Shown: positions 44,929 through 59,503 of the stretch, piece after piece | Position numbering within the stretch: the first letter of the stretch is position 1 | How the letters are laid out: each line of letters opens with the position of its first letter | From: a phage | Direction: 5' to 3' (one strand) | Sequence record: OZ413487.1 | Length of the DNA: 64,000 nt | Notes under the pieces: model-generated | What the model was told of the DNA's origin: nothing | Seen by the model: only the letters and a program-made list of their open reading frames with translations | The model's database searches: none | Translations under genes and position numbers: made by a program

Positions 44929-45261
44929 ATGGTAACATTAGAAAGACGTAAAGCTATTGCCGCCACACTGGCAGACATCTTTTGGGATTGTAATTTAAAA
45001 TCTACCCGAAATTGTGGCGCATCTGTAGATGTATTATTCCCACGGCCTACTATTGTTGCAATGGGCAACCTTCTTGATGTGGTATATGGAGCATGGGACA
45101 AGGAAGGTGGATTCTATATCTGGCAACCTGACTACGGGACTTGGAAAGAGGTTAGTGGTTCTACGGACTTCACTCCTGCAGTGGCTAAAATGGATGGCTG
45201 GAAAATCTATGTCGGTAACGACATGGAACTGAAAGGCGAAATTGTTTACTGGTTACCTTAA
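44929..45261 (+). CDS. hypothetical protein
   Basis: 110-aa ORF. Confidence 0.5.
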   Translation: MVTLERRKAIAATLADIFWDCNLKSTRNCGASVDVLFPRPTIVAMGNLLDVVYGAWDKEGGFYIWQPDYGTWKEVSGSTDFTPAVAKMDGWKIYVGNDMELKGEIVYWLP

Positions 45262-45282
45262 GAGAATGCAGGAGATAAAGTT

Positions 45283-45528
45283 ATGAACAAAGGGTGGACA
45301 TTTGTAGACGGCGTTAAAAACATGCCTCTAGGAAAGTATATTGTAGCCATGGCTGATGAGGATGGCAATGTGGATTTCGGAGCTTGCGAGGTTGTTCTTG
45401 CAGGATCTGGTAACTATGTGGACAAAACCGGGATAATTAACGGTCAGTTCTACTTTGATCACAACCCTGTTGTAGCGTATATGGCTATGCCAGAGTTTAA
45501 GTTCCCAAAGGATGGTGCTGATGTTTAA
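45283..45528 (+). CDS. hypothetical protein
   Basis: 81-aa ORF with RBS CAGGAGA. Confidence 0.5.
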   Translation: MNKGWTFVDGVKNMPLGKYIVAMADEDGNVDFGACEVVLAGSGNYVDKTGIINGQFYFDHNPVVAYMAMPEFKFPKDGADV

Positions 45529-45718
45529 GCTTAAATCCGCATGGAGCATTGCTGTGGGTGATGAGATCCGTATCCCCGGTGGGAAGACCATTATGAAGAT
45601 ATCTCGTATTGAGTACGAAGGTGACCGTGTATTCCACATCTTCGCAGAAGATGGTCGAGAAATTTATATACAGGCAGGTTCTCACATTTATATCCGTAAG
45701 AAAGGGGACGACAAATGA
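45512..45718 (+). CDS. hypothetical protein
   Basis: 68-aa ORF. Confidence 0.45.
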   Translation: MVLMFKLKSAWSIAVGDEIRIPGGKTIMKISRIEYEGDRVFHIFAEDGREIYIQAGSHIYIRKKGDDK

Positions 45719-46044
45719 CAGAAATCATCATTTCAACTGCAGGGTATGTGTTCCTGACAATCATTGCACTGACTATTTTGGTGACAGTGTATGGGTTTGT
45801 TATCCTTCCTATCCTTGAGACATTTAGTTTGTGTCGGTGTTGGAGAAAAGCTTACGGTCCACAACCATGGAAGGACTGGCCCCACCTGGTGCGCTTAGCG
45901 TTCTCTTATGCTTACGATCACTCCAGTAGTGCATGCATAACCGGATACCACGCCCACAACTGGAGCTGGGAAGGGTTGAGGAAATGGAATGTTACAAAGA
46001 CCATACCTCTGCGCATGTACAAACCTAAAAACAAAGACAACTGA
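45715..46044 (+). CDS. small membrane protein
   Basis: N-terminal transmembrane segment (YVFLTIIALTILVTVYGFVILPIL); RBS AAGGGGA. Confidence 0.55.
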   Translation: MTEIIISTAGYVFLTIIALTILVTVYGFVILPILETFSLCRCWRKAYGPQPWKDWPHLVRLAFSYAYDHSSSACITGYHAHNWSWEGLRKWNVTKTIPLRMYKPKNKDN

Positions 46045-46086
46045 TACTTGAAAATTCTTGGCATATCAAGTATAAGGGGGATTTCT

Positions 46087-46533
46087 AAAATGGATTTCCT
46101 CCTTTTGATATTTCACCGGGCCGGATATTTTAAAATTCTTAGAAAATCAGAAAATGGATCGAAAACTAAAATGGATTTTTCAGAGTAGGCGCGACAAGCT
46201 GAATAACTCATCCTATCGTTTGCACCATATTCCAGGCCACCATTATAGATTTCCCACACATGCTAACCTCCCTCTACTAGAACTTCCTCCACTTACCCTT
46301 GACCTTCTATGGTAACAATCTAACCGCTATCTTGAAGTTGCTGTGCAGCTTTCCAGGTACTCGATCTACTTTTCATTTCAGGGCTTGGATTTTCTGAAAA
46401 TTTTTCTCGATAAATTTCTCAGTACTCGATCTGTTTTTCGTTTTCTGAATCGGATTTTCTGGAAATCGTTCCGGCTCTCGACCTGAAATTTTTGGGGACG
46501 AAATCGATTTTTCGTTTTCAGAAATGGATTTTT
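46087..46533. repeat. iteron-like array of short direct and inverted repeats (AAAATGGATTTT / GGATTTTCTGAAA, TACTCGATCT)
   Basis: Seven or more copies of the core and its complement within about 450 bp of ORF-free DNA. Confidence 0.6.
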
Positions 46534-46680
46534 AAAATTTCTATATGGGAATATTTTATGGGATACTGTTTTATAGGAAATTGTTACGGAGGGTAATTAG
46601 CGTGCTAATTAAATTTATTAAATGCGAGGAGTTCTCATTTAGAATTTTGAATGATAATCATTCTCGTTTGCAGAATAACG

Positions 46681-46703
46681 GGCAGGCCCGGTGATTGTCT
46701 CCC
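46681..46703 (+). repeat. 23-bp motif GGCAGGCCCGGTGATTGTCTCCC (left copy; a variant lies at 46821-46837)
   Basis: Exact reverse-complement copy at 54121-54143; embedded in a roughly 60-bp imperfect direct repeat (46640-46705 versus 46780-46840). Confidence 0.6.
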
Positions 46704-47060
46704 GGCCCCTACTGCCCCGGCTTGTTATTATAGTATCACACAGGACAAAGAAAGCAAGGATTTTTTGCATAAATTTTTAAATGATAATGATAACCGTTCT
46801 CATTTTATGCAGCGCCCATCCCCGGTGGTTGTCTCCCCCGTCACCGGTGCCTGCCGTCCTTTCGATAGGTATATCGTGCCACCTGGCGGGGCCGCTGTCA
46901 ACACTTTTCAAAAAATTTTTCTAACCTGATGCGCTAACCGCTGCAACCTGGCGGGGTCAGCCTGGCAGGACCTAACTGACCGGGTAGGAGAGAATGAAGG
47001 CTTGTAAACCTGGTGGGCCTATGCTACAGGATAGGTAACAATTGAAGAGGAGGTACAAAA

Positions 47061-47228
47061 ATGAAAGGTAATATGATCCCCCTAGAAAATGTAGCTATTA
47101 ATGACGCTGAGGCTATCGCCCTGGTTGAAAAGGCTATGGCGGGAGCGTTGGAACATAAAGAAGAGTACGAAAAATGGTGGTTAACCTGGCGGGGGCGGCA
47201 GGTGGATTCTATCATAAAAATAATTTAA
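47061..47228 (+). CDS. small protein (55 aa, below the ORF-track threshold)
   Basis: Strong RBS GAAGAGGAGG 7 nt before the ATG. Hand translation MKGNMIPLENVAINDAEAIALVEKAMAGALEHKEEYEKWWLTWRGRQVDSIIKII. Confidence 0.5.
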   Translation: MKGNMIPLENVAINDAEAIALVEKAMAGALEHKEEYEKWWLTWRGRQVDSIIKII

Positions 47229-47236
47229 AATAGTCG

Positions 47237-47265
47237 TTGACAACAAGGTTAATCATGGTATTATT
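47237..47265 (+). promoter_or_regulatory. sigma70-type promoter (TTGACA-N17-ATTATT)
   Basis: -35 hexamer in the same AATAGTCGTTGACAA context seen at 38641. Confidence 0.5.
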
Positions 47266-47315
47266 ACCCTACAAGGTGAACAACACCGCACTAACCAGTA
47301 AAGAGGATAAATTTA

Positions 47316-47512
47316 TGAACGCATACGGGATCAAAGTACGTCGCAACACTCGCCAGGTGGTCACCAATCAAGTGATTTGCCGGGTGGATGTAACCATCAA
47401 CAACGGGCAAGGCCTTTATAAATTTCGTCGCGGTCATAGCTATACCCTGCAACAGCTTAATCGTTGCGCCCTGACAAAAGGTCAGATCAACCATTGGTTT
47501 AATAAAAAATAA
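47316..47512 (+). CDS. small basic protein
   Basis: ATG after AAAGAGGATAAA; the N-terminal extension in the track ORF (47237) overlaps the promoter. Confidence 0.5.
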
Positions 47513-47515
47513 GTA

Positions 47516-47544
47516 TTGACATACAGTCCGACACCAAATACACT
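47516..47544 (+). promoter_or_regulatory. sigma70-type promoter (TTGACA-N17-TACACT)
   Basis: Upstream of the 47577 gene. Confidence 0.55.
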
Positions 47545-47576
47545 AAAAGCACAAAAGACACTAAGAGGATAAAATC

Positions 47577-47975
47577 ATGAAAACCACTACCTTTAATTTT
47601 GATAATGCAGACTTTTCTTTTTCTGATGTCAAGAACTGCCGCCGTGATCGTGGATTTTACAAGGCTTATAATCTGGTGGGCCTGGACGATGACAATAATT
47701 TGCACGAAGTAGCTGAGATCCGGTATTATGCCGCCGCCAGCGGTAACACTAACTACTGCGTTTTTTGGATACACGACAACAAGAACAATAAGTACGGTTA
47801 TACTGGTGGCAAGGCTAGCGGTCACGGTTATGATAAAGCCAACGCTGCACTTGAAAGCGCATTAAATGCCATGGGAATCACTGCCGACGGCTGGATCTAT
47901 GAAGAAGAGTTTTTGGCGGCACTTGCTGCCCACCTGGGCTATAAAAAGCACATTGTAACATGCGCCCACGAATAA
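47577..47975 (+). CDS. hypothetical protein
   Basis: 132-aa ORF with RBS AAGAGGA. Confidence 0.55.
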   Translation: MKTTTFNFDNADFSFSDVKNCRRDRGFYKAYNLVGLDDDNNLHEVAEIRYYAAASGNTNYCVFWIHDNKNNKYGYTGGKASGHGYDKANAALESALNAMGITADGWIYEEEFLAALAAHLGYKKHIVTCAHE

Positions 47976-47986
47976 AAAAAAAATTA

Positions 47987-48014
47987 TTGACACGCTGCAA
48001 AATTCAAGTAAACT
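47987..48014 (+). promoter_or_regulatory. sigma70-type promoter followed by 5' UTR hairpin GGCGGGAATGTTTCCCGCC (48025-48043)
   Basis: TTGACA at 47987, then a stable hairpin between the -10 and the RBS. Confidence 0.5.
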
Positions 48015-48062
48015 AGGCACAAAAGGCGGGAATGTTTCCCGCCAACACGAAGGAAAAAGATC

Positions 48063-48458
48063 ATGAATAAAAACGTACGCCGCATCATGAACGAACTGGC
48101 AAACGATGAAAAAATTATTGATATGCATTTGGTCAACATTTGCCGCCGTTGTGTAACATATAACAACCGCGCCGCAAAAGCGCGTGAGATGAACGCAAAA
48201 GGCACCTTAAAGCCCTTTCAGGTGGTTGTAAAATCTATGACCAGTGCAGCAGGCCAGGCGCATGACCACAACAACGGGAGCACTAATATTGATCCATCTT
48301 ACGTAATGAAACGGATCCGGACTTGCAAGAATAAAGAGCAGGTGTATAACGTCATAGATTGGCTGGACTCCCTGGGTGACGTGGTTTACAATAGGTTTTC
48401 TGCAGCTATTGAAATTCAGTTAGACAGGTTGGACGGGAAAGTACTGAAAACTTACTGA
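48063..48458 (+). CDS. hypothetical protein
   Basis: 131-aa ORF. Confidence 0.55.
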   Translation: MNKNVRRIMNELANDEKIIDMHLVNICRRCVTYNNRAAKAREMNAKGTLKPFQVVVKSMTSAAGQAHDHNNGSTNIDPSYVMKRIRTCKNKEQVYNVIDWLDSLGDVVYNRFSAAIEIQLDRLDGKVLKTY

Positions 48459-48460
48459 GT

Positions 48461-48505
48461 TTATTTTTAGATGGCCTTGACTCCAGGGCCATCAATAAAG
48501 TAAAC
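48461..48505 (+). repeat. 45-bp intergenic element TTATTTTTAGATGGCCTTGACTCCAGGGCCATCAATAAAGTAAAC (copy 1)
   Basis: Nearly identical copies at 49089-49133 and 52804-52848 and a variant at 49425-49470, each immediately after a stop codon. Contains the palindrome GATGGCC ... GGCCATC. Confidence 0.7.
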
Positions 48506-48538
48506 TAATCCCAGTTAAGCGAAAAAGGAGGCTTGAAG

Positions 48539-48658
48539 ATGAGCACTACACGCCAGCACACAAAGGTAACTATTATCGTTTGCATCATTGGTTATATCCT
48601 GGCGCAAATGTTGATGGGTAGCGCTAACGGTGTCGCAAAATTTTTCTTAAACTTTTAA
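48539..48658 (+). CDS. small hydrophobic peptide (39 aa)
   Basis: RBS AAAAAGGAGG; hand translation MSTTRQHTKVTIIVCIIGYILAQMLMGSANGVAKFFLNF, with a single transmembrane-like segment. Confidence 0.4.
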   Translation: MSTTRQHTKVTIIVCIIGYILAQMLMGSANGVAKFFLNF

Positions 48659-48686
48659 TTGACAAGCTAACTTAGATCAGTATACT
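48659..48686 (+). promoter_or_regulatory. sigma70-type promoter (TTGACA-N16-TATACT)
   Basis: Followed by a small 5' UTR hairpin and RBS AAAGGAGAAAACAT. Confidence 0.55.
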
Positions 48687-48735
48687 AAACACATAAACGG
48701 GAAAACTTCCCAGAACACCAAAAGGAGAAAACATT

Positions 48736-49086
48736 ATGAATACTTCCATCACTATGACCGCCGAAGAAAAAGCCCTGCAGATCGCCGCTCTGAAAAAACA
48801 GATTGCAGAACTTGAAGACAAGATCGACAATTTTGAAATCGACGAAGACAAATACGACGATAAATATGATGAATGGTTGGACGAGATCTACGGCGAAATT
48901 ATGATCGGAAACATTTCTTTTCTTCCGTCGCGTATCCTCAAGGAGCTAGATCCTATCGCTTACCGCTGCGGATTTAGCGACTACATCGACAGCCTGGATA
49001 TTGAGGACGATGAAGAATACCAGGAATTGCAGACAGAGCTTGAAGAAGTGAAAGAAGAGCTTGCAGAACTGGAAGAAAACGAGTAA
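48736..49086 (+). CDS. highly acidic coiled-coil protein
   Basis: 116 aa, rich in D/E with heptad character (IAELEDKIDNFEIDEDKYDDKYDEW ... EELQTELEEVKEELAELEENE). Confidence 0.6.
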   Translation: MNTSITMTAEEKALQIAALKKQIAELEDKIDNFEIDEDKYDDKYDEWLDEIYGEIMIGNISFLPSRILKELDPIAYRCGFSDYIDSLDIEDDEEYQELQTELEEVKEELAELEENE

Positions 49087-49088
49087 GA

Positions 49089-49133
49089 TTATTTTTAGAT
49101 GGCCTTGACTCCAGGGCCATCAATAAAGTAAAC
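49089..49133 (+). repeat. 45-bp intergenic element (copy 2)
   Basis: Identical to 48461-48505. Confidence 0.7.
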
Positions 49134-49175
49134 TTTATACTGTTAACACTGAACTAATGCATAGGAGTTAAAACC

Positions 49176-49421
49176 ATGGCAGCACTAATCACCAAATATT
49201 ATGCCCCTACCAACACCAAAAGCGCCCGTATCATGGTAAAAGGCTTCGGACGTAAAAAGGTTTACACTTGGGATTATTCCCTAGACATGGAAGACAACTA
49301 CACCAACGCGATGACCGATTTTATTAATGAACTAAATAAGCAGATCTTAACCAATTATAAGGTGACCGACATCGCCTATGTTGGGGAAGGTGGGATCTGT
49401 TTTGTCGGTATTGTCAAATAA
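49176..49421 (+). CDS. hypothetical protein
   Basis: 81-aa ORF with RBS ATAGGAG. Confidence 0.5.
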   Translation: MAALITKYYAPTNTKSARIMVKGFGRKKVYTWDYSLDMEDNYTNAMTDFINELNKQILTNYKVTDIAYVGEGGICFVGIVK

Positions 49422-49424
49422 GCT

Positions 49425-49470
49425 GTTTTTTCGGTGGTCCTGGTGGCAGGGCCATCTATAAAGATAGTTT
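49425..49470 (+). repeat. variant of the 45-bp intergenic element
   Basis: Shares GGCAGGGCCATC-TATAAAG-TA with the other copies. Confidence 0.45.
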
Positions 49471-49496
49471 ATTAACACCATGAAAGGAGAAAGTAC

Positions 49497-49850
49497 ATGA
49501 TCAGCGGGGCTAGTTTTATTATTGGCGCTATTGCTACAGCTTTAATTGTAAACAAGATCCAGGATAAAAAGGAAAGAGGAAGTACCGCCCTTGCAGAATA
49601 TCCATTTTGGACATTCAACGATAACGAAGATTATATTATAAAGTATAAAAATAAAGAAGGTGACCAAGTAACACCGCGACCGATCCCGGCTTACAAGATG
49701 CAGGAAACACTATACCGCTTGGAGGCAGGGGGCGCAAAAATTGTGGACTTTTGGGGATACGATCACACAGATCAGGAAGTTATAAAGCGCCGTATCCGGG
49801 CTATTCAGGCCAATATTGAAGTTAGCAAGGGGGGAATATATGAAGATTAA
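49497..49850 (+). CDS. hypothetical protein with N-terminal transmembrane segment
   Basis: RBS GAAAGGAGAAAG; N-terminus MISGASFIIGAIATALIV. Confidence 0.55.
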   Translation: MISGASFIIGAIATALIVNKIQDKKERGSTALAEYPFWTFNDNEDYIIKYKNKEGDQVTPRPIPAYKMQETLYRLEAGGAKIVDFWGYDHTDQEVIKRRIRAIQANIEVSKGGIYED

Positions 49851-50037
49851 TTTTGAGAAAATTGTAAAGCGATCTCATGATTCCGAAGAGCTGCCGGAAC
49901 GCCGCCAGCGTAACAATAAACTGAATAAGCCAAAAAGATTTGGGAAGATCTGGCGGAATCATTATGATCGTAAATTGCCGGGCCTCCTTTTGGAACGTGA
50001 ACGGCAGGCGGAACGATACCGCCACAAAGGCAACTAA
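49840..50037 (+). CDS. small basic protein
   Basis: ATG at 49840 after AAGGGGGGAA; terminator downstream. Confidence 0.45.
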   Translation: MKINFEKIVKRSHDSEELPERRQRNNKLNKPKRFGKIWRNHYDRKLPGLLLERERQAERYRHKGN

Positions 50038-50043
50038 CAACCA

Positions 50044-50074
50044 ACGCCCCGCCATCGTGCGGGGCTTTTTATTT
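50044..50074 (+). terminator. rho-independent terminator
   Basis: GCCCCGC ... GCGGGGC hairpin plus TTTTTATTT. Confidence 0.75.
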
Positions 50075-50195
50075 CTACCCTACGAATAGCGCCCCTGGTT
50101 GGCCCCACAACGCCCTAAAAGCCCCCTACCCATGCAATCCCATTTCTTAACCTGAAAACATCGTCAAAGGCTGTTTTAAAGCGTTAAAAATATTG

Positions 50196-50224
50196 TTGAC
50201 ATCTAAAATATTCTAGATATACTA
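50196..50224 (+). promoter_or_regulatory. sigma70-type promoter (TTGACA-N17-ATACTA)
   Basis: Upstream of the 50259 gene with RBS AAGGAG. Confidence 0.5.
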
Positions 50225-50258
50225 ATCACATCAAAGCGAGAAGTAAGGAGTAAACGCC

Positions 50259-50519
50259 ATGCGTAAATTAAAAAATTTTGATAAAGTTGATATTGTCCTG
50301 AATAATTTTTACTACTGCAATAACAAGGCCGTTTGGTGGCGTGATAGTTCCACCGATAAAGTCAAGGCGCGCTTTCTCCAGGGGCACTGGCAAGGCCGCC
50401 CAGTGATTAAAATCATGGGGCAATTGGTAGCGTTTAAAAATTGCCGCCGTGTTGATGACGTTGAAGAGATTTTAAACATTTTGCGCCACAATAATTTAAA
50501 AAATAGTGTTGACAAGTAA
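50259..50519 (+). CDS. hypothetical protein
   Basis: 86-aa ORF. Confidence 0.55.
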   Translation: MRKLKNFDKVDIVLNNFYYCNNKAVWWRDSSTDKVKARFLQGHWQGRPVIKIMGQLVAFKNCRRVDDVEEILNILRHNNLKNSVDK

Positions 50520-50536
50520 ATCTCAATAAGTATAAT
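50509..50536 (+). promoter_or_regulatory. consensus sigma70 promoter (TTGACA-N16-TATAAT) followed by 5' UTR hairpin GGCGGGAAAACTTCCCGCC (50547-50565)
   Basis: Overlaps the 3' end of the upstream gene; the hairpin is 8 bp with a 3-nt loop. Confidence 0.6.
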
Positions 50537-50593
50537 TAAAAACACAGGCGGGAAAACTTCCCGCCACTAACAAAGAAAACAGGAGAAAATATC

Positions 50594-51217
50594 ATGACCA
50601 CCGTTAACATTACCACAGGTTACAATTTATCTTTCGACGTGCTGACCGACGAACAAAAAGAAAAAGCCGTGGAAATGGTCCGCGAAAGAGAAGAACACAG
50701 CGGGGATAACTTTTTTGCAGAAAGTGTAATTGAGTACTATAAAGAATATGTTTTTCCAGAGTACGGCCTTGAAGATACCGATGTACATTGGTCAGGCTTT
50801 TGGTGCCAGGGTGACGGCGCGTCAATCAGTGCGGAAAACGTGGATTTAGAAAAATTCTTGCGTAAAGTCAAGTCTCTGACTAAATTCCGCTCAATTCGTC
50901 ACTTGTTCGGCACAATGCACGATGGCGAGTTATCCGCAAGTGTTGAGCGTGATCCATATAGCCGCTATAGTCACGAAAACACTGTAAACGGATACATCGA
51001 TACTACATGGCTAGACCTGACCACCAAACAAGAAAACAAAGTGGAAGATCTGGAAGAGCTGATCACCGAGACGGTACGGGAGTTATCCCGCAAGGTTTAC
51101 GTAGACCTGGAGGAGGCCTATCTTGAACAATTCACCGCCGAAAACTTGATCGGCCTTATCGAGGCCAATGATTGGCGGTTTGATGTCGATGAACACGGTA
51201 AGATGACTTTTTCATAA
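50594..51217 (+). CDS. hypothetical acidic protein (207 aa)
   Basis: RBS AACAGGAGAAAA; no recognised motif. Confidence 0.6.
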   Translation: MTTVNITTGYNLSFDVLTDEQKEKAVEMVREREEHSGDNFFAESVIEYYKEYVFPEYGLEDTDVHWSGFWCQGDGASISAENVDLEKFLRKVKSLTKFRSIRHLFGTMHDGELSASVERDPYSRYSHENTVNGYIDTTWLDLTTKQENKVEDLEELITETVRELSRKVYVDLEEAYLEQFTAENLIGLIEANDWRFDVDEHGKMTFS

Positions 51218-51224
51218 ATAAAGT

Positions 51225-51252
51225 GTTGCAATAACCTAAAAACCTGCTATAT
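51225..51252 (+). promoter_or_regulatory. sigma70-type promoter (TTGCAA-N16-TATATT) followed by 5' UTR hairpin (51264-51282)
   Basis: Same cassette architecture as at 50509. Confidence 0.45.
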
Positions 51253-51305
51253 TAAAACTCAAGGGGCAAGACGTTTGCCCCACACAAAACAAAGAGGTAA
51301 ACATT

Positions 51306-51686
51306 ATGAAAAACACTACTAAAGCTATTGACACCGTTATGTTTAACCTGGTTACATTCCGTGAAGATATGAAAGATCTTCCACGTGAAACAGTGTGCGA
51401 TCACATTGAAAACTATCGCAAACTAATCAAAGAGTTGCCTTTAAAACGTGACCAGTATGCGGCTAACGCTATGCTTAACGCCATGATCAAAAAGATGATT
51501 CAGTGTGATTTAACTCTGGCCTATGATTATGCAGGTGGTCGTTTTGCAGTATACAATCAGCCCGTGCCTGGTATGAGCACCACCGAAGAATTGCACGCGT
51601 TAAATCTGAAACAAGATGTATGGGATAACATGCCCCGCGTGGTGGTGTGGGCAGAAAGCGGAAAGATTTACGGCGATAATTTTTAA
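51306..51686 (+). CDS. hypothetical protein
   Basis: 126-aa ORF with RBS AAAGAGGTAAACATT. Confidence 0.55.
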   Translation: MKNTTKAIDTVMFNLVTFREDMKDLPRETVCDHIENYRKLIKELPLKRDQYAANAMLNAMIKKMIQCDLTLAYDYAGGRFAVYNQPVPGMSTTEELHALNLKQDVWDNMPRVVVWAESGKIYGDNF

Positions 51687-51750
51687 TCAGGTAACAGGCG
51701 GCATATTTGCCGCCTTATTGTTAAACAGAACTGCAAAAGAGGTACATAGA

Positions 51751-52122
51751 ATGGAATTTATTATTTTGGCTGTAGTAGTTGCCTTGTTCAACGCCTGGAT
51801 CGCTGGCAAGATAGGTAGATCCGCTTTTCTATGGTTTGTTATATCTATTTTCCTGGGAGTGGTTGCAACTATTGTATTGGTTATCCTTGCAATTGTTGAC
51901 AAGGGCGATAATAGAAAGGGTAAAGTGTTTTCCGACCTGTATGACGCACAAACGTTTGTCAACGCCTATTATAGTGATCTTCCAGTCTCCCTACGCTGCA
52001 GCCTGGCACAACAGGTTTTTGATGAGGCTAAAACCAGAGACCAAGCCCATGAGATATGTTTAACTGAAGCGGATCGCCTATTTGAGAGGAATAGAAAATA
52101 TGTGGACCAGCCGTTTAAATAA
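51751..52122 (+). CDS. membrane protein (two predicted transmembrane helices)
   Basis: ATG at 51751 after AAAAGAGG; hydrophobic helices FIILAVVVALFNAWIAG and LWFVISIFLGVVATIVLVILAIV. Confidence 0.55.
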   Translation: MEFIILAVVVALFNAWIAGKIGRSAFLWFVISIFLGVVATIVLVILAIVDKGDNRKGKVFSDLYDAQTFVNAYYSDLPVSLRCSLAQQVFDEAKTRDQAHEICLTEADRLFERNRKYVDQPFK

Positions 52123-52321
52123 CGCCACGTTAATTAATCCCTTTAGTGAAGATTTGAAGCCAGCCGCCTGGCGTGACGGATTCAATAACGAACGCTTTAT
52201 TTTCAGGCCTGATCTTGAGGAATTTTATAACAATGGATCGAACAACAGCGGAGATAATTTTTCTTGTGGTGTGCGTGGTGATAGGACTCCTGGGGGCCAT
52301 TGTAAACCACGTCACTACTAA
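52100..52321 (+). CDS. hypothetical protein (uncertain)
   Basis: ATG after GAGAGGAATAG; low-complexity N/G/S-rich. Overlaps an alternative-frame small membrane ORF at 52233..52358. Confidence 0.3.
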   Translation: MWTSRLNNATLINPFSEDLKPAAWRDGFNNERFIFRPDLEEFYNNGSNNSGDNFSCGVRGDRTPGGHCKPRHY

Positions 52322-52341
52322 CAGGAGGGAAGGGGGAGACG

Positions 52342-52461
52342 ATGACAACCAAAGATAAGCCATGCGCTGATAAGGTGCGCCGTGTTATGGTATGGCTTGA
52401 GATTATCGCCCTTGAAATATTGTTAGGCGTAGGGATGTACTTTATCGCTGTAAGTAACTAA
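52342..52461 (+). CDS. small membrane peptide (39 aa, uncertain)
   Basis: GGGGGAG just upstream; hydrophobic core VMVWLEIIALEILLGVGMYFIAV; terminator immediately downstream. Confidence 0.35.
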   Translation: MTTKDKPCADKVRRVMVWLEIIALEILLGVGMYFIAVSN

Positions 52462-52463
52462 GA

Positions 52464-52494
52464 GCGGCCCCCGATCATGGGGGCCTATCTTTTA
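52464..52494 (+). terminator. rho-independent terminator
   Basis: GGCCCCC-GATCAT-GGGGGCC hairpin plus TATCTTTT. Confidence 0.7.
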
Positions 52495-52515
52495 AAAAAT
52501 TTTTCTTCCGGGGTG

Positions 52516-52544
52516 TTGCAATCCGGTCCGGAATGTGGATAATA
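52516..52544 (+). promoter_or_regulatory. sigma70-type promoter (TTGCAA-N17-ATAATA)
   Basis: Followed by a 5' UTR hairpin and RBS AGAAAGGAGAAA. Confidence 0.5.
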
Positions 52545-52599
52545 ACAATCAACGGGGAGCTAATCCCCACCACCACAAAAACCAGAAAGGAGAAACAAA

Positions 52600-52800
52600 A
52601 TGAGCAACAATATCCGCGTTATTAACTTCAAAAAAGAAGAAAAAATTGCCGTGCTGATTGACGGTCAAGAAATCTTCAAGGGCGACTATGAAGATCATCA
52701 AACGGCGATTAGTATCACTCGCGTGATTGGTTATCATAATTTCTACCCCCAAGGCGCTGAGGCAGCAGTTAAACGAATCAAAGAGATTGTAGGCCTGTAA
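52600..52800 (+). CDS. hypothetical protein
   Basis: 66-aa ORF. Confidence 0.55.
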   Translation: MSNNIRVINFKKEEKIAVLIDGQEIFKGDYEDHQTAISITRVIGYHNFYPQGAEAAVKRIKEIVGL

Positions 52801-52803
52801 AAT

Positions 52804-52848
52804 TTATTTTTAGATGGCCTTGACTTCAGGGCCATCGATAAAGTAAAT
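52804..52848 (+). repeat. 45-bp intergenic element (copy 3)
   Basis: Two mismatches relative to copy 1. Confidence 0.7.
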
Positions 52849-52893
52849 TTAAACCCTGTTAAAATACCACGCAGTTAACAAGGAGTGATAGAC

Positions 52894-53193
52894 ATGTTTA
52901 TCCAGGCTAATAATCTTTATTTCTTTGATGGTCAGATCGTAGATGGTGTGGAAGTGGAGATCACCGGGTGCCCTGGCGGTCAGGCTATGACTTTTCGGAA
53001 TAATGCCTTTGATGATTCTCATATCGTTATAAGAATGGAAGTTACGAAGCTGGACGACAAGAAAACACTTATTGACTATTCTGTGAAAGATCATCCAGAC
53101 TACCGCATGATCCATGGTGATTTGTGCATTGTTGACCGTGACAAGGTGGGCGGCATTGTGATCGCTATTGTGAACGATGTTTTCTCAAACTAA
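52894..53193 (+). CDS. hypothetical protein
   Basis: ATG at 52894 after AAGGAG. Confidence 0.55.
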   Translation: MFIQANNLYFFDGQIVDGVEVEITGCPGGQAMTFRNNAFDDSHIVIRMEVTKLDDKKTLIDYSVKDHPDYRMIHGDLCIVDRDKVGGIVIAIVNDVFSN

Positions 53194-53210
53194 TTTCAGC
53201 AGGCGATTTT

Positions 53211-53561
53211 ATGAAAGTCAAACTATATTACCTTAATGAGCTTAACCCCCTTGCCCAGGTCCGCGCCCTAGCTAATACCTTGATTTGTGAGAAATCTGTA
53301 TATTGTGTTGAGCTTAACGCCATGCGTGAACGTCTCAAAGGTGGTTACTTTGACATCCATGCTGCAATCAACGGCCTGAATATGGAATTTATACGCTTAC
53401 GTAACAGCCGCCGGAATCTGGCAAGAATGGAACAAGATCCGGCCCACCTTCGTAAACTGGTTATTGAAAATCATCTGATGTTTAATGCCGAGGGGGATTA
53501 TTACCATTTTCACCGCAAACGCTGGTACCGTGGCGGCAATACAGGCAAGAATGCAAAATAA
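53211..53561 (+). CDS. hypothetical basic protein
   Basis: 116-aa ORF; two hairpins and a terminator downstream. Confidence 0.55.
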   Translation: MKVKLYYLNELNPLAQVRALANTLICEKSVYCVELNAMRERLKGGYFDIHAAINGLNMEFIRLRNSRRNLARMEQDPAHLRKLVIENHLMFNAEGDYYHFHRKRWYRGGNTGKNAK

Positions 53562-53596
53562 GGCCCCTAGCAGGGCCTGCAGCAATATAATCACAT

Positions 53597-53631
53597 AAAG
53601 GCCATGCGGTTGCATGGCCTTTATTATTTTG
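53597..53631 (+). terminator. rho-independent terminator
   Basis: GGCCATGC-GGTT-GCATGGCC hairpin plus TTTATTATTTT. Confidence 0.75.
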
Positions 53632-53678
53632 GCGTTACAACGGCATACGGGGCGCTTAAAAAATTTTTAAAGAAGTAC

Positions 53679-53706
53679 TTGCATCATTCCCGACAATATG
53701 GATAAT
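53679..53706 (+). promoter_or_regulatory. sigma70-type promoter (TTGCAT-N16-GATAAT)
   Basis: Followed by hairpin GGGGGAGGCCCCC and an RBS; downstream coding is ambiguous. Confidence 0.45.
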
Positions 53707-54120
53707 AAGAGTTGTCGAGGGGGAGGCCCCCAATCGTTGACCAGATAGATAGGAGTTAAAATCATGGCTATTGTTACCGCTGGCTATCTTCAAAGATGCG
53801 GAAGCAAAACAACGCCGGATCTCAATACATGAGATCATCAACCTTAACGCTGGAGGCACACCATACCGCCCAGGACCTGGCCGTGAGATGGACAATACGC
53901 TAGCGATCCTGAAGATACGCCGTAAACGGTCCTCCCTTACTCTGGACTCATTACACACAATGCAGCCTCCGTTCCAGGTGACCGGGAAACGGATCGCCAG
54001 GTCCTGGACAAAGGCCAATGATCGGACCGTATAAATAAAAGTGTTTTGGTACTGATTTTGGGGTTGACTTGTTCGGCCCCTTTTGCTATTCTTATTAAAC
54101 GGGCGGCACTTGGGAACAGG

Positions 54121-54143
54121 GGGAGACAATCACCGGGCCTGCC
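54121..54143 (-). repeat. 23-bp motif, inverted copy of 46681-46703
   Basis: Exact reverse complement (GGGAGACAATCACCGGGCCTGCC). Confidence 0.6.
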
Positions 54144-54168
54144 TGTCATATAAGAACTATAAAAACCG

Positions 54169-54197
54169 TTGACATCTGCCATGGGGTGGGGTAACAT
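54169..54197 (+). promoter_or_regulatory. sigma70-type promoter (TTGACA-N17-TAACAT)
   Basis: Upstream of the 54252 gene. Confidence 0.5.
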
Positions 54198-54251
54198 TTA
54201 TCTTGAAGGGGCAAAAGTGCCCACACAACAACCAAGAGAGAGGAAAACACT

Positions 54252-54524
54252 ATGTCAAACTGGATTAATCAAGAAGTCGAATCACGTTTTAATGCTATTT
54301 GGGATCTCATCGAAAAAGAAGACGGCACATCAAGCCCCTACCTCAACAATTTGGAATTCCATTTTGTGGAAGCGATGAACGCAGAACATGATCACGAAGG
54401 TGGCGCGGATGAGTTCGCTAAAGGTTATGGCTTTAACAATGCCAACGAAATGATCGAGGCGGTAGTACTCCAGGCTGAGGAAGATTATCAACTAAAAACG
54501 CTTGAATTCTGCCGCCGCAAGTAA
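54252..54524 (+). CDS. hypothetical acidic protein
   Basis: 90-aa ORF with RBS AGAGAGGAAAACAC. Confidence 0.55.
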   Translation: MSNWINQEVESRFNAIWDLIEKEDGTSSPYLNNLEFHFVEAMNAEHDHEGGADEFAKGYGFNNANEMIEAVVLQAEEDYQLKTLEFCRRK

Positions 54525-54584
54525 TAAGATAATGACACGGGCCAAAAGGCCCACTAATCAGAACCGCACAAAGAGGTAAACATC

Positions 54585-54848
54585 ATGAAACGTCTTGATC
54601 AGCTCAAATTAGTTCAATATATGGCTTATCGTGTTCTTGAAGTCCAGAAAGGTAGCAAAAAAGAGGTTTGCGAGAAAGCTTATAAGATCTTCACTCGCAA
54701 AAAAGATGACTGGATGCTACGCCAGACTAAAAAGGCTGACATCTTGGGGTACCTGGAAGAAGAGATCCGCCTTGAAGAGCAAGAAGAGATCCGCCGTAGT
54801 GAGGCAGATTATCAGGCAGCTTGGGAAAACTGGATGAGCAACAAATAA
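54585..54848 (+). CDS. hypothetical protein
   Basis: 87-aa ORF with RBS AAAGAGGTAAACAT; terminator downstream. Confidence 0.55.
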   Translation: MKRLDQLKLVQYMAYRVLEVQKGSKKEVCEKAYKIFTRKKDDWMLRQTKKADILGYLEEEIRLEEQEEIRRSEADYQAAWENWMSNK

Positions 54849-54865
54849 TACAACAAGGTGCACGG

Positions 54866-54894
54866 TCAGGGGCTTAAAGCCCCTTTCTTTTTGT
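54866..54894 (+). terminator. rho-independent terminator
   Basis: GGGGC-TTAAA-GCCCC hairpin plus TTTCTTTTT. Confidence 0.75.
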
Positions 54895-55772
54895 CTCCTC
54901 TTTTCCTACCACAAATGGCCCCGCCTGGCAAATGGAATAATCAACAAGCCAGCAATTAACCCCACTGTACAAACATACATATAAAATAACTATTGCATAA
55001 TTTTTCATTGTGTGGTAGCAGTGCCATTTTTACACGTTTTTCCTTCCAAAATTGCACGTAATGCAGCATTTGCACAAAATTTAACCTGATGCATATCTTC
55101 AATAGCTTGTCAACAACTAAAAATCTTTATAAGTCATACACTTACATAACTACAAAAACGTTTTCTACGTGAAAAATCGAGTATAACTATAGCCGCCAGA
55201 TCTCAGAATTTACGTACGCTCGCCATTCTATAGCCTGCTAAGCATTTATTCCAACCATAGAATAACGGAATAGTCAATACCTGCATAAAATAATTATTCG
55301 TGTAAACTGCATAACATAAATCGGCCCAGGTGTCAACATTTTTCGTAAACAGTCTGGAATTGTCACGTTAGGTTACCATAAGCAGAGAAATCTTTAGTCG
55401 TCTAATGTTTACTGTACATTACTATACTGACTGGAATCATTAGATGACTAAGAGAAAGATAAGAAATAATTAATAATGTAATTATTTTACCTGTAACAAT
55501 AAGGCAACTATGCAAACGAATGGCATGGCGCGACGGAGTCGCGACATAATATAAAAGCAGTAACCATCACCCCCGTGATAGTTTGTCTGCAAACTATTAA
55601 TCAGATCATAGTTGCCTTGTATTTAGTTAATCATGACATGACAAGCAAGGCAACTATAGATCTGCTAATAGTTGCCCTGCTTTTATATTATGTCATGCTA
55701 ATTATAATCAGTGCGATTATTGTCATGTATAATTATTGTCATGCAAACGAATGGCATGGCTGATTATCGGTG

Positions 55773-55859
55773 TGTAAACAGTCAATCATGTAAATGGTTA
55801 GCATGTGAACAATCAGGAATGTAAACAATCCAGTGTGTAAACTAATAGGTGTGTAAAAG
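55773..55859. repeat. iteron array: six copies of (G/A)TGT(A/G)AA(C/T) at roughly 16-bp spacing
   Basis: GTGTAAACA, ATGTAAATG, ATGTGAACA, ATGTAAACA, GTGTAAACT, GTGTAAAAG. Confidence 0.6.
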
Positions 55860-56135
55860 TGTCATGTTGTGTCAGTTAGGTCACATTATGTCAGACAAGT
55901 TTTTCTCCTCTTTGTCAAGTGCTGCATGAAAAATTTACAAGCTTGTATGGTAGCATTTTTGCGGCCCTGTTTACATTCAGTAATGTATGTATAATCCTTG
56001 TTGTGTGGGCGTTTAGACGTCTAGACGGTTGGAAGTCCACAGGTCAATATCTAATCTATCGGCTGCTAACTATATCCCACACAAATAGTAAGAAATATGA
56101 TTGTTATATGCGTAAACTGTAACTCATGTTATCAA

Positions 56136-56505
56136 TCCCTGTATGGATCGCCAGTGGTGCGCATAATAGGTATTATGTTAAATTGCCCGTAATGATAACA
56201 GTTCTCACAATGATAGGTATTCTCATTCATCCACACAAAATAGGTTGCAAATGTTGTGCCACTGTGTGAACGGCCTGGCCTATTAATTTCTCTCACTGCC
56301 TCGATATTTGAGAATTGTTATCCCTGTATGGATCGCCAGTGGTGCGCATAATAGGTATTATGTTAAATTGCCCGTAATGATAACAGTTCTCACAATGATA
56401 GGTATTCTCATTCATCCACACAAAATAGGTTGCAAATGTTGTGCCACTGTGTGAACGGCCTGGCCTATTAATTTCTCTCACTGCCTCGATATTTGAGAAT
56501 TGTTA
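56136..56505. repeat. perfect tandem direct repeat, 2 x 185 bp
   Basis: Copy 1 (56136-56320) and copy 2 (56321-56505) appear identical base for base when read by eye. Confidence 0.8.
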
Positions 56506-57564
56506 TAAGAATGAGAAGTATTCCCATTCCGTCCGCCTGGCAGCACTCCTGTAGGTCCTGCAAGGACTCTAGCTGAAAGCTAGACCCTTCGGGCCTCCCT
56601 GTAGGTCAGGTCAAAATCGTGGTAGAATTGGGCCTGTTCAGATATTTCTGGCTGACTCTTCAGGTCTGTGTGGGAAAAGCCAACCTCTCCGGCGGGGCAG
56701 GGGGTCATGACGGGAAAATTGCAGGTCAATTAAAAAATTTACGTGGTGTATGAAGCGCTCTTCAGGTAAGGCATGTATTATGGGATGAAACCCTCTTCAG
56801 GCAATGATATTTGTGGGTGTGATATTTGCTGGAAAGCCAGATATGACGGGACTCCCGGCGGGGATGGGGTAGTACAGACAGGGAAAATATGAGAATGTAG
56901 TTGGGGAAATTGATCAGACAGGTAGAGTATGGAATATGTTACAAGTATGTTAAATATGGAGGTTGAATATCTGTAGGATTTGTGTGTAAAATCAAAGACT
57001 TAAGGGGTGTTGTGGTATTTTCTATAAATAATTCAAGTTTAATAGGCAATATTTGTCTCTATCCGCTTTGTGTGGTAAACAGATTCAGATTAGATTGGTT
57101 TACAAGTGTATACATAATATACAAATTAAAGATACAAGAAACCCCCCTCCCCCTTCGGCTACCATTCACCTTTTCCTCTGACTGGTACTTAAACACTTAT
57201 TCAGACTCTTCAGGTTATCACCCATATATCATATGGCAGTGACTGGTGTCCTCCGGCCCCTCTTTCGTCACCCGTCCGCTTCGCCATGCTAATGCCATAG
57301 CCAATGGTTCGGTTGTTCACTCTGTTCACTCAGGTGTATCTCCATACCCCTTCAAACCGAAGAGAACAGAAAACCCGAATTACTCGGTAAAAGAAAAGAG
57401 AAGAACTTAATTTTATCAGGATAGGCAAGAATGTCAAGGCATGACTGCTCACTAAACAAGCAAACAGTCATGTGTGGAAGGTAAGTGATTGTGGTGGTGG
57501 GAAATTTAGTTGAAAGATGTGTTATAGGTGCTCCCAGCACTTTAGCCGGGTAGCTAATTGTGTG

Positions 57565-57846
57565 TCAGTCCAGTGGTTCATCACCTACTTCACTGAAATC
57601 AATGTTCATGGTCTCCTCCCAACCATCAATCTCAGCACCAGAGTAGAGATCTTTAGGACTTACTCCCAAAGCATCAGCAACAGAGTCCATATTTAACACC
57701 TCTGGCAGGTATGATTCATCGAATTCAAGGTAAATCAGGCCACGAGTGTTGTCAGCTCCACCAAATATTTCTATCTTCATGAAATCTCCTCTGGGAATGA
57801 GAGTGTGAACAGGGTTTATACGTTCCAATGCGCTGGAATTATGCAC
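57565..57846 (-). CDS. small acidic protein
   Basis: 93-aa ORF, first of the minus-strand block. Confidence 0.5.
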   Translation of the reverse strand: MHNSSALERINPVHTLIPRGDFMKIEIFGGADNTRGLIYLEFDESYLPEVLNMDSVADALGVSPKDLYSGAEIDGWEETMNIDFSEVGDEPLD

Positions 57847-57900
57847 GTTTGCCTCTTCAGGCCATGCTTCAGCATGAGGAACCTGTGTGGGCTCGGTGCT

Positions 57901-58113
57901 TCATAGTCTACCACCCCTGAACTCTTCGTGCTCAGGCATAATAGAGAACCAGATATCTACGATGTCTTCCCACGTCAGGTCATCAGCCTCAGGATCTACC
58001 TGGAGCGAAGATGAAGAATCTTCAGAATCGAAGTTTTCCTCTTGCACTGGCTCAGTCAAGGGACATATAGTCACTCCTTTGGATGTCTCTTCAGATGCAT
58101 GTGTGTTTATCAT
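57901..58113 (-). CDS. small acidic protein
   Basis: 70 aa, D/E/S-rich. Confidence 0.45.
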   Translation of the reverse strand: MINTHASEETSKGVTICPLTEPVQEENFDSEDSSSSLQVDPEADDLTWEDIVDIWFSIMPEHEEFRGGRL

Positions 58114-58232
58114 GTTCCACCCGTGAGTATTCCGGCAACAGCTGCTATGGACGTAATGATCATCAGGATCACCACTAAAACTTCGGACAATGTTCTCATT
58201 GTGTACTCCATATTCTACAAACTATGTGTGGA

Positions 58233-58261
58233 TACTATCACTGGATCGGTAATGTGTCAAC
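58233..58261 (-). promoter_or_regulatory. sigma70-type promoter (minus strand, TTGACA-N17-TAGTAT)
   Basis: Reverse complement of 58233-58261 reads TTGACA, a 17-nt spacer, then TAGTAT. Confidence 0.5.
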
Positions 58262-58418
58262 AGAAACGCCGCGAGGGTTTGGTTAAAATCCGAGCGTATG
58301 GTGATTTGGGTCAAAACGGACGTGCGTTCTCGCTACGCTCGAAATATGGAGTTGTTTGTAGGGAGCTCTTAAACGCTCTGTAATGAAATTAACTACCCAA
58401 GGTATGCAATCGTGCACC

Positions 58419-58449
58419 AGACAAAGAAAAGGACGCCACAGAGCGTCCT
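58419..58449 (-). terminator. rho-independent terminator (minus strand)
   Basis: AGGACGC / GCGTCCT hairpin followed on the minus strand by TTTCTTTGT, just downstream of the gene ending at 58474. Confidence 0.6.
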
Positions 58450-58473
58450 AGGTGTCTTAAATTTGATATTTTG

Positions 58474-58785
58474 CTATACCCACGAGGGCTTATCAAGGTT
58501 GGAGTAGCTGAAAGGTGTCAAAAGGTGACTGTCAAAATCTCTCAAACTATCCAAATCTTTTTCCTCGTCCTGACACCATCTGTGCCTACATTTGTTGTTG
58601 TAGTGCATGGAATGCATAGCGTTCTGCAACTTAACAGGCACAAGTGATTCAGGAGTAGATAGTATTGTTGGGTATGCCAGAACCACCTCAAACAGTGGAA
58701 ACACATCGAAACTAAAGTCTACCTCTGCAGAGGTTGATGGCATATAGGAGTATTTAGCCGCCTTTGTAGACATAATCCACCTCAC
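58474..58785 (-). CDS. hypothetical protein
   Basis: 103-aa ORF. Confidence 0.5.
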   Translation of the reverse strand: MRWIMSTKAAKYSYMPSTSAEVDFSFDVFPLFEVVLAYPTILSTPESLVPVKLQNAMHSMHYNNKCRHRWCQDEEKDLDSLRDFDSHLLTPFSYSNLDKPSWV

Positions 58786-59114
58786 ACAGGTTTGATAATA
58801 CCTTCACCGAATAGCTCTTCGTATCTAATCTTGTCCGGATCCCACTCCTGTATAATTTCGAAGACAATATCCAACCCAGGAACAATCACTTCTCCAGTGT
58901 CAAGCTTAGCAAGAACAAAACCGGAAGGTTGAATGGTTTCCCAGTTACGGCGATCAGAATAAAATACTTCGAAAATATCACCAACCTCAATCCGTTTCTG
59001 TTGCTCAAGATGCTGAAGGTTCTCTTTCATACGGATGCAGCGTATTTTTCGTGCAGGCCATAGACCACCTGCATCACGTTCATTCAATTCTTTTACAGTG
59101 ATCGGTATACCCAT
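58782..59114 (-). CDS. hypothetical protein
   Basis: 110-aa ORF overlapping the downstream gene by 4 nt. Confidence 0.5.
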   Translation of the reverse strand: MGIPITVKELNERDAGGLWPARKIRCIRMKENLQHLEQQKRIEVGDIFEVFYSDRRNWETIQPSGFVLAKLDTGEVIVPGLDIVFEIIQEWDPDKIRYEELFGEGIIKPV

Positions 59115-59475: not shown

Positions 59476-59503
59476 AGTAAGAGTCTCCTTATGTTGTTTT
59501 AAA

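Follow-up and report, generated by a model that had tools for sequence, protein, structure and literature searches.

A Repeated 49-nt Hairpin–Promoter Element as a Putative Joint Between Small-Gene Cassettes of an rV5-like Coliphage

Introduction

T4-like phages of the RB49/phi1, T4/PST, and KVP40/nt-1 groups carry promoter-early stem-loops (PeSLs), in which a stop codon lying in an AT-rich tract is followed by a sigma70 promoter, a stem-loop, a Shine–Dalgarno (SD) sequence, and a start codon (Arbiol et al. 2010, PMC2839356; Comeau et al. 2014, PMC4122927). The stem-loop, in which G-T pairs occur, covers the −35 box, lies between the boxes, covers the −10 box, or sits just past it, and PeSLs lie ahead of ORFans in hyperplastic regions and coincide with indel boundaries, where neighboring copies excise the intervening genes and give circular products, or mini-circles (PMC2839356; PMC4122927). 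The PeSL authors read such leader-type hairpins as terminators or attenuators of upstream transcription. Here, we describe a related arrangement in 64,000 nt of phage DNA (sequence record OZ413487.1; this whole stretch is called the window), where an array of small genes at positions 47061–54848 is punctuated by four copies of a 49-nt element that pairs a hairpin with, in most copies, a probable promoter. We propose that the region is built of self-contained cassettes and that the element is a composite joint of the PeSL kind, an account to which we assign a probability of about 0.7.

Two further systems serve for comparison. On the polycistronic early mRNA that host RNA polymerase makes from T7, RNase III signals form intergenic hairpins between small early genes; these are R0.3, R0.5, R1, R1.1, and R1.3, with positions and cleavage behavior reportedly set out by Dunn and Studier in 1983. 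Stabilizing stem-loops at the 5′ terminus, such as that of the ompA leader, are said to have been characterized by Emory, Bouvet, and Belasco in 1992; stem-loops of this type near the transcript end slow 5′-end-dependent decay.

The region at 47061–54848 comes from an rV5-like coliphage (Vequintavirus; 93–97% nucleotide identity). It matches 124 phage records at 80–99% nucleotide identity, nearly all of them Vequintavirus, with vB_EcoM_10C2_SA_NWU as the best match (97.4%). Annotated genes of isim, Murica, 10C2, and rV5 correspond one-to-one with + strand open reading frames (ORFs) of the window; the region equals approximately rV5 ORFs 165–197 and forms the distal part of a long small-gene unit that the rV5 authors numbered 10-1-238-164. 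An IMG/VR search with gene 7 returned two loci only, so our comparisons are based on GenBank phages. A regulatory map exists for rV5 (Kropinski et al. 2013, PMC3606486, Table S4); it lists neither the 49-nt element nor the leader hairpins described below, and the word “repeat” is missing from its text.

A 49-nt Element Combines a Two-Helix Hairpin with a Probable Promoter

Three canonical copies of the element lie at 48458–48506, 49086–49134, and 52801–52849 (copies 1–3), and a variant lies at 49421–49469, all on the + strand, as are the features below unless stated otherwise. In three copies, base 1 is also the final base of a stop codon; in the remaining copy, it directly follows the stop. 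The sequence-only reading of this DNA had recorded a 45-bp palindromic element after stop codons; all four sites hold, but the repeat is 49 nt long and folds into a hairpin of two helices, of which the GATGGCC/GGCCATC palindrome makes only the upper one. The full fold comprises a 10-bp A-U helix, an internal loop of 2 and 3 nt, a 10-bp G-C helix, and a tetraloop. No match to the element arose in 100 shuffles. By BLAST, it occurs in 121 phage-collection records, usually three times per genome, and is restricted to Vequintavirus except for the exchange with phage KKE7M described below. A covariance model found no copy beyond the four in the 64-kb window and none in phi92-like loci. Neither the element nor the region as a whole has an Rfam match at gathering thresholds (a Clostridium-PBP match at 51239–51308, found at E ≤ 1 with 33.5 bits against a gathering score of 94.4, was taken as chance), and neither a description of the element nor three substrings of it turned up in the literature searched.

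Among 17 distinct copies from nine genomes, standard pairs fill 97.6% of cells; sliding the partner columns lowers this to 37–58%. In the lower helix, four pairs have changes in both partners (U-A to C-G and A-U to U-A, among others), and in the upper helix, three pairs vary, only to G-U. Canonical copies are 92–98% identical to one another and the variant only 67% identical to them; it forms the same two-helix hairpin through compensatory and G-U changes and lacks the −35 and −10 boxes. Differences between genomes fall in the loop, and the stems remain paired. Predicted RNA folding energies are −20 to −25 kcal/mol for the + strand and −8 to −16 kcal/mol for the − strand. Taken together, the preserved pairing, the two-sided changes, the asymmetry of folding energy between strands, and the variant without promoter boxes argue that the hairpin structure is selected for itself, on the mRNA-sense strand.

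The canonical copies contain TTGACT, 18 nt, and TAAACT (copies 1 and 2) or TAAATT (copy 3) after a T-rich tract (TTTATTTTT). By sequence, the element, thus arranged, has what characterizes a PeSL promoter (−35 and −10 boxes at 16–18 nt and an AT-rich tract with the upstream stop codon), and its hairpin spans the −35 box. The embedded promoter is probably real, because its −10 region (AAGTAAACT) is identical to that of the promoter at 47987 (rV5 P194) and aligns with the hairpin-less promoter TTGCAA-16-TAAACT of the phi92-like phage PD114. A single-stranded DNA promoter, either of the F-plasmid Frpo kind or a hairpin promoter of the N4 type, was considered and rejected: the fold builds no duplex promoter, because the −35 box occupies the hairpin top (the end of the upper stem and the loop) and the −10 box is confined to a single arm.

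In sequence and arrangement, the element and the promoter–hairpin units described below match the PeSL description point by point. They share its layout, its G-T pairs, its location before ORFans in a hyperplastic region, its coincidence with indel ends, and the excision of genes between neighboring copies. PeSLs have so far been reported from T4-like phages, whereas the host genome of the element is Vequintavirus and, via exchange, also Justusliebigvirus, a difference of taxonomic scope and not of mechanism. Unlike the short G(n)-loop-C(n) stem of a PeSL, the repeated element is a longer, 20-bp two-helix hairpin with an internal loop; a genome holds only four copies of this long form, and about eight further predicted promoter-plus-hairpin units of the simple kind occur in the region.

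Cassettes Are Lost, Gained, and Exchanged at Repeated Regulatory Sequences

Indels were mapped by comparing the window with seven relatives. Eight fell within about 10 kb, four ending in repeated regulatory sequence and four at short microhomologies in coding sequence. In phage ime, a single element stands in place of copies 1 and 2: window segments 45003–48506 and 49086–53787 both adjoin the same 49 nt, copy 1 being the left repeat of an exact 628-bp loss that removes genes 5 and 6. The same junction is present in magaca and in an IMG/VR contig (L004).

A second event crosses a subfamily boundary. KKE7M, a phi92-like phage (Justusliebigvirus), shares only window positions 48658–49138 (89.9% identity over 483 nt), a segment that opens with a promoter, includes a leader hairpin and gene 6, and closes with the element; relative to its own relative PD114, KKE7M has had a 216-nt gene replaced. 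On the left, the crossover falls within the shared promoter, TTGACAAG.TAACT.A.ATC, and on the right, within AATAAAGTAAA(C/T)T.

Other indels have their ends at a −35 box, at a leader repeat, or between terminator hairpins. A metagenomic relative (L005) has an extra 563 nt between two −35 boxes, the insertion being bounded by that of the promoter at 50196–50223. Both ime and rV5 carry an extra 257-nt gene between copies of a 36-nt leader/SD repeat (54553–54588). The window lacks the 542-nt ORF164 cassette of rV5, including its promoter P164, and the junction (54866–54885) is a hybrid of two similar terminator hairpins; this loss is polymorphic and is also found in nimi, nomo, C12, and C14. As judged from these alignments, related phages have lost, gained, or swapped cassettes at repeated regulatory sequences, in one case across two subfamilies.

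The microhomology events include a private deletion of 2.2–2.3 kb with its junction at 53777–53787 (microhomology CCGCTGGC), which removed approximately eight genes that all relatives examined carry and joined the opening codons of one gene, in a different frame, to the interior of a second, leaving a 22-aa remnant ORF as its scar (53764–53832). Among 118 records, the junction is unique to this phage. Also of the microhomology type are a 192-nt indel near 44450 and the absence of gene 18 from rV5 and of gene 1 from Murica.

Promoters, Leader Hairpins, and Terminators

Nine + strand sites with at least 10 of 12 matches to TTGACA/TATAAT occur in 46900–54900, compared with 1.3 ± 1.2 in 200 dinucleotide shuffles, and seven of the nine are intergenic, 33–58 nt upstream of an ATG. 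The claim that nearly every gene is preceded by a near-consensus promoter was, therefore, right about the sites and too generous about their number: approximately 13 of 21 genes have a sigma70-like promoter of their own when weaker and element-embedded sites are counted, and seven of these promoters are near-consensus. The remaining eight genes are coupled or cotranscribed, overlapping the preceding gene or following it directly.

Six promoters of the window are found in rV5 Table S4: TTGACA-17-TACACT at 47516–47544 (P195; P195A in the RefSeq record), TTGACA-16-TAAACT at 47987–48014 (P194), TTGACA-16-TATACT at 48659–48686 (P192; the left end of the cassette common to KKE7M), TTGACA-16-TATACT at 50196–50223 (P186), TTGACA-16-TATAAT at 50509–50536 (P185; 12/12), and TTGACA-17-TAACAT at 54169–54197 (P168). 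The other predicted sites are TTGACA-16-TATTAT at 47237–47264 (11/12, extended −10), TTGCAA-16-TATATT at 51226–51253 (9/12, extended −10), TTGCAA-16-GATAAT at 52516–52543 (9/12, preceded by an A/T-rich tract), and a weak site read by eye, TTGCAT-16-GATAAT at 53679–53706. Most promoters and terminators of the region are already published for rV5.

The hairpins of the region fall into three classes (leader, element, and terminator) that are cleanly distinguished by position and tail. Seven leader hairpins start 8–12 nt past a −10 box, and one further hairpin has no clear promoter. They are followed by 0–1 U in 10 nt and end 20–29 nt upstream of the ATG. The pair singled out in the sequence-only reading was confirmed: GGCGGGAAAACTTCCCGCC at 50547–50565 and its variant GGCGGGAATGTTTCCCGCC at 48025–48043 each start 11 nt past the −10 box, the latter without a U tail. 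The others are CGGGAAAACTTCCCA at 48698–48712 (12 nt past the −10 box), GGGGCAAGACGTTTGCCCC at 51263–51281 (lengthened in relatives by an extra G and C in the stem), GGGGAGCTAATCCCC at 52554–52568, and hairpins at 53714–53738 and 54208–54223 that follow the promoters at 53679 and 54169; a hairpin at 54539–54552 (GGGCCAAAAGGCCC) stands with the 36-nt leader/SD repeat at 54553–54588. A strong GC hairpin starts 7–13 nt downstream of 5 of 12 −10 boxes, compared with 2.9% of random positions (binomial P = 1.5e-5). PD114 has the same order of promoter, ∼10 nt, GC hairpin, and SD.

These hairpins resemble ompA-type leaders in placing a GC hairpin near the predicted 5′ end, followed by 20–29 single-stranded nt before the start codon; they differ in that the transcription starts here are predicted ones. 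At about +2 to +6 of their transcripts, they would stabilize the mRNAs against 5′-end-dependent decay. The T4 protein Srd stimulates RNase E. An Srd homolog has been reported by the rV5 authors (PMC3606486), and if it stimulates RNase E as well, protection of phage messages would make sense, a point that we offer as speculation.

Six intrinsic terminators lie 4–33 nt 3′ of a stop codon or, for that at 54060–54080, in untranslated sequence, with 5–8 U in the next 10 nt. Four correspond to published rV5 terminators: 51696–51715 (t184), 52466–52485 (t181), 53595–53624 (t177), and 54868–54884 (t164, the hybrid hairpin left by loss of the ORF164 cassette). The sixth, at 50046–50065, ends in a T run.

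Proposed Function and Rival Explanations

In the account that we favor, a cassette would consist of a host sigma70-type promoter, often a 5′-terminal GC hairpin, a strong ribosome-binding site, and a small ORF, with the six canonical terminators closing groups of cassettes. On transcripts arriving from upstream, the element would act as RNA, folding from the stop codon onward into a two-helix hairpin of 20 bp; as DNA, it would supply a promoter in three of its four copies and restart transcription for the following gene. Transcripts starting at the embedded promoter would not contain the element hairpin, which would be a transcript-end or processing structure and not a canonical terminator. 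The promoters would fire early. As a whole, the region reads as a block of sigma70-driven small accessory genes and is consistent with early expression; no published Vequintavirus transcriptome was found in the literature searched, and we infer this timing.

The leading candidate for the hairpin’s role is an RNase III-type site which, like those of the T7 early region, would leave a 3′ hairpin as protection. The element resembles the T7 intergenic processing hairpins because it spans about two helical turns (10 + 10 bp) with a 2/3-nt internal loop, and it is intergenic and on the sense strand. When folded for comparison, the T7 early sites showed a GC-rich upper stem of 9–13 bp, an internal loop, and an AU-rich lower stem. 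In both phages the hairpins lie between small genes, those of T7 being early ones that include gene 1.1, whose product has a homolog here. The T7 sites have no sequence similarity to the element, their internal loop is larger and their lower helix shorter than those of the element (2 and 3 nt; 10 bp), and they do not carry a promoter for the host polymerase in the same manner. By this analogy, RNase III cleavage of the element is a tentative proposal that meets with more doubt than belief. The earlier suggestion that the element serves RNA processing is borne out to the extent that an mRNA-sense structure appears to be selected, and processing itself is a reasonable guess from the sequence. 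A more ambitious version makes the element a portable joint with three functions in one: an RNase III-type hairpin, a sigma70 promoter for the next gene, and a homology patch that moves ORFan cassettes within Vequintavirus and to phi92-like phages. With the lower helix on the stop codon, a terminating ribosome would have to open it, and processing of the upstream message would thereby be tied to its translation. In this full form, we consider the proposal unlikely.

Several observations weigh against the favored account. The relatives are close (83–97% identity), which makes conservation alone weak evidence, and the covariation comes mostly from the comparison of canonical and variant copies. 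G-T pairs would equally stabilize a single-stranded DNA hairpin of the same strand, leaving RNA unproven as the folding molecule. The embedded promoter has a spacer of 18 nt, which is not optimal, and matches the consensus at only 9 of 12 positions; because its TTGAC is partly stem, the fact that it never varies says little in favor of a −35 box. Of the eight mapped indels, four lie at plain microhomology inside coding sequence and not at regulatory repeats, and a deletion between copy 1 or 2 and copy 3 was looked for and found in none of 116 records. Finally, because no mapped transcription start, 3′ end, or cleavage site was found in the literature searched for any Vequintavirus, timing, promoter activity, and RNA processing are all inferred.

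That the element is a plain Rho-independent terminator or attenuator of the upstream gene, with incidental promoter-like hexamers, would fit the Murica record, which annotates two of the sites as 45-nt terminators, as well as a stable hairpin (−20 to −25 kcal/mol) that starts on the stop codon and a variant that is conserved though it has no promoter; moreover, one PeSL stem-loop cut lacZ reporter expression as much as rrnB T1 did (PMC2839356; PMC4122927). Canonical termination at the element is unlikely, because the U tail of the phage’s own terminators is missing: the GC helix is followed by AAUAAAG, and the full hairpin is followed by 3–6 scattered U in 10 nt, compared with 5–8 U directly after the stem in the six clear terminators. 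In the established model of intrinsic termination, an A-U helix at the hairpin base is unfavorable for transcript release, and the rV5 terminator list, made with ARNold and MFOLD, does not contain these sites. We regard a plain terminator as improbable. Still less probable, in our view, is that the copies are recent duplicates of one promoter region spread by recombination, with a functionless hairpin that looks conserved through youth. The canonical copies are indeed 92–98% identical and the available genomes 83–97% identical, and the shuffle control of pairing does not remove relatedness. Nevertheless, the variant, at only 67% identity, keeps both helices by two-sided changes and G-U wobbles, the differences between genomes are in the loop while the stems stay paired, and all four copies stand in the same register to the stop codon.

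The sequence-only reading had also raised coregulation through the shared element. A double-stranded DNA operator, GATGGCC-N10-GGCCATC, for a dimeric phage or host regulator of the three promoters would explain why the palindrome brackets the −35 hexamer in three copies and why these copies are almost identical across 121 genomes. It is hard to reconcile with the variant, in which G-U wobbles produce unlike duplex half-sites (GGTGGTC and GATGGCC) and no promoter is left to regulate. Pairing also continues into the second, A-U helix with compensatory changes, the strong strand asymmetry of folding energy is meaningless for a duplex operator, and the half-site centers are ∼17 bp apart, off the one- or two-turn spacing generally usual for operators. 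We find an operator hardly credible.

Compatible with the composite-joint account is the further idea, also put forward in the sequence-only reading, that the ORFs are host-takeover or antidefense effectors expressed immediately after infection. Sigma70-type promoters need no phage factor, gene 9 belongs to the T7 gp1.1 family (T7 gene 1.1 being among the class I/II early genes), the genes are dispensable and vary between isolates as accessory genes do, and homologs of gene 20 are scattered across unrelated phages. Against this, no product matched a characterized takeover factor or antidefense inhibitor in Pfam, PHROG, or Protein Data Bank (PDB) searches or in a fold search with gene 11, the rV5 authors place sigma70-like promoters all over the genome, so that a promoter alone is not proof of early expression (PMC3606486), and no expression data were found in the literature searched. 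An effector role is possible and somewhat against the odds; as a description of the module, it is unsupported by the products.

The architecture is, in sum, real and nonrandom. Known biology accounts for most of it; its novelty is modest and lies in the details, and it does not overturn current views. It extends promoter-plus-stem-loop joints, so far reported from T4-like phages, to rV5-like and phi92-like phages, groups that see wide use in E. coli phage collections and in therapy cocktails. Three genomes with the exact excision and one cassette move between subfamilies, with both crossovers in promoter sequence, provide natural examples that help to explain accessory-gene turnover in these phages, and they mark dispensable genes and natural insertion points for engineering. 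The two-helix hairpin itself is a compact candidate signal for mRNA processing or stability.

Gene Content of the Region

The estimate of about 20 small genes was accurate: 47061–54848 contains 21 + strand ORFs with SD sites, of which 20 are small genes and one is the 22-aa deletion remnant. From the left, they are gene 1 (47061–47228; 55 aa, acidic; absent in Murica, where the junction of its loss lies in two AACCTGG motifs), gene 2 (47315–47512; 65 aa, basic), gene 3 (47577–47975; 132 aa), gene 4 (48063–48458; 131 aa), gene 5 (48539–48658; 39 aa with one hydrophobic segment; absent in ime, magaca, and L004), and gene 6 (48736–49086; 116 aa, pI 4.1, coiled-coil-like; absent in ime and transferred to KKE7M). 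Gene 7 (49176–49421; 81 aa) is followed by gene 8 (49497–49850; 117 aa with an N-terminal hydrophobic segment), whose end is overlapped by gene 9 (49840–50037; 65 aa), and by gene 10 (50259–50519; 86 aa), gene 11 (50594–51217; 207 aa, acidic), and gene 12 (51306–51686; 126 aa), which has a KKE7M homolog at 76% nucleotide identity.

Gene 13 (51751–52122; 123 aa, membrane) is overlapped at its end by gene 14 (52100–52321; 73 aa). They precede gene 15 (52342–52461; 39 aa, hydrophobic), gene 16 (52600–52800; 66 aa), gene 17 (52894–53193; 99 aa, acidic), and gene 18 (53211–53561; 116 aa; absent in rV5). Beyond the remnant ORF lie gene 20 (54252–54524; 90 aa, acidic) and gene 21 (54585–54848; 87 aa). 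An alternative-frame ORF of 41 aa at 52233–52358, which includes a hydrophobic stretch (MDRTTAEIIFLVVCVVIGLLGAIV...), overlaps gene 14 in its 3′ half.

Gene 9 encodes a T7 gp1.1 homolog (Pfam PF08200; 42.4 bits against a cutoff of 21, E 9.5e-11), and the Murica record carries the same note; all other products are in PHROG families of unknown function. Beyond gp1.1, Pfam gave only subthreshold coiled-coil noise, and sequence searches of the PDB with genes 3, 4, 11, and 12 gave nothing below E = 0.15. Structure prediction, which had been suggested as a route to function, led no further: the AlphaFold model of gene 11 was confident (pLDDT 86.8), and a fold search with it found no significant structural neighbor, so that no fold was assigned. 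Gene 3 has three close homologs only, too few for a useful alignment. The products had been described as frequently acidic or membrane-anchored; both kinds occur (five acidic, with pI below 5.3, and four with a hydrophobic segment), but together they make up fewer than half, and seven products are basic. With all products in families of unknown function and eight indels against seven relatives in ∼10 kb, the sequence of 47061–54848 marks it as a hyperplastic, variable accessory-gene region of an rV5-like phage.

Homologs of gene 20 were found by tblastn (148 records) in unrelated siphoviruses and myoviruses, the kind of spread that a mobile accessory gene would show. PeSLs were defined in RB49, which is not among the best 30 of these 148 records. 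In the rV5 annotation (NC_011041; 16670–16942 and upstream), ORFs 167, 205, 206, 209, and 210 are noted as similar to RB49 hypothetical proteins.

Observations in the Flanking Sequence

A motif, GGCAGGCCCGGTGATTGTCTCCC, occurs inverted at 54121–54143 (− strand) and on the + strand at 46681–46703 and 46815–46837, and so flanks the gene array on either side. Both the inverted copy and the first of the + strand copies read GGCACCCCC... in rV5, where two copies ∼8.8 kb apart have thus changed in concert; the motif has no Rfam match. A transposon-like reading of the inverted 29-nt pair (46675 and 54121) was rejected: there is no transposase, and the homology extends over only ∼25–30 nt.

Immediately upstream of the array, 46050–47060 (∼1 kb) has no convincing ORF; a “non-coding” box is mentioned in the rV5 paper (PMC3606486). 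This stretch contains three direct repeats of ∼65 nt (46347, 46412, and 46486) and two repeats spaced by ∼130 nt that start with AATGATAAT (46650 and 46780). Four AACCTGGCGGGG-like motifs lie at 46883, 46948, 47008, and 47185, and two of these AACCTGG motifs hold the junction of the gene 1 loss in Murica.

Elsewhere in the window, a group I intron match (Rfam RF00028; 36881–37116, + strand; 64.7 bits, E 4e-14) starts at the end of an 809-aa ORF (34467–36896), which suggests that the gene is interrupted by an intron. Downstream of the array, there is no ORF of at least 120 aa in 55000–61500, and the GC skew turns negative over 55000–64000, where relatives annotate small genes, including one for a ribosome hibernation promotion factor/sigma-54 modulation protein; this part is the convergent end of a neighboring transcription unit. 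Among the database records, 17–22 “Campylobacter phage” entries (MG0656xx) are >90% identical to E. coli rV5-like or phi92-like phages, and their host labels look unreliable.

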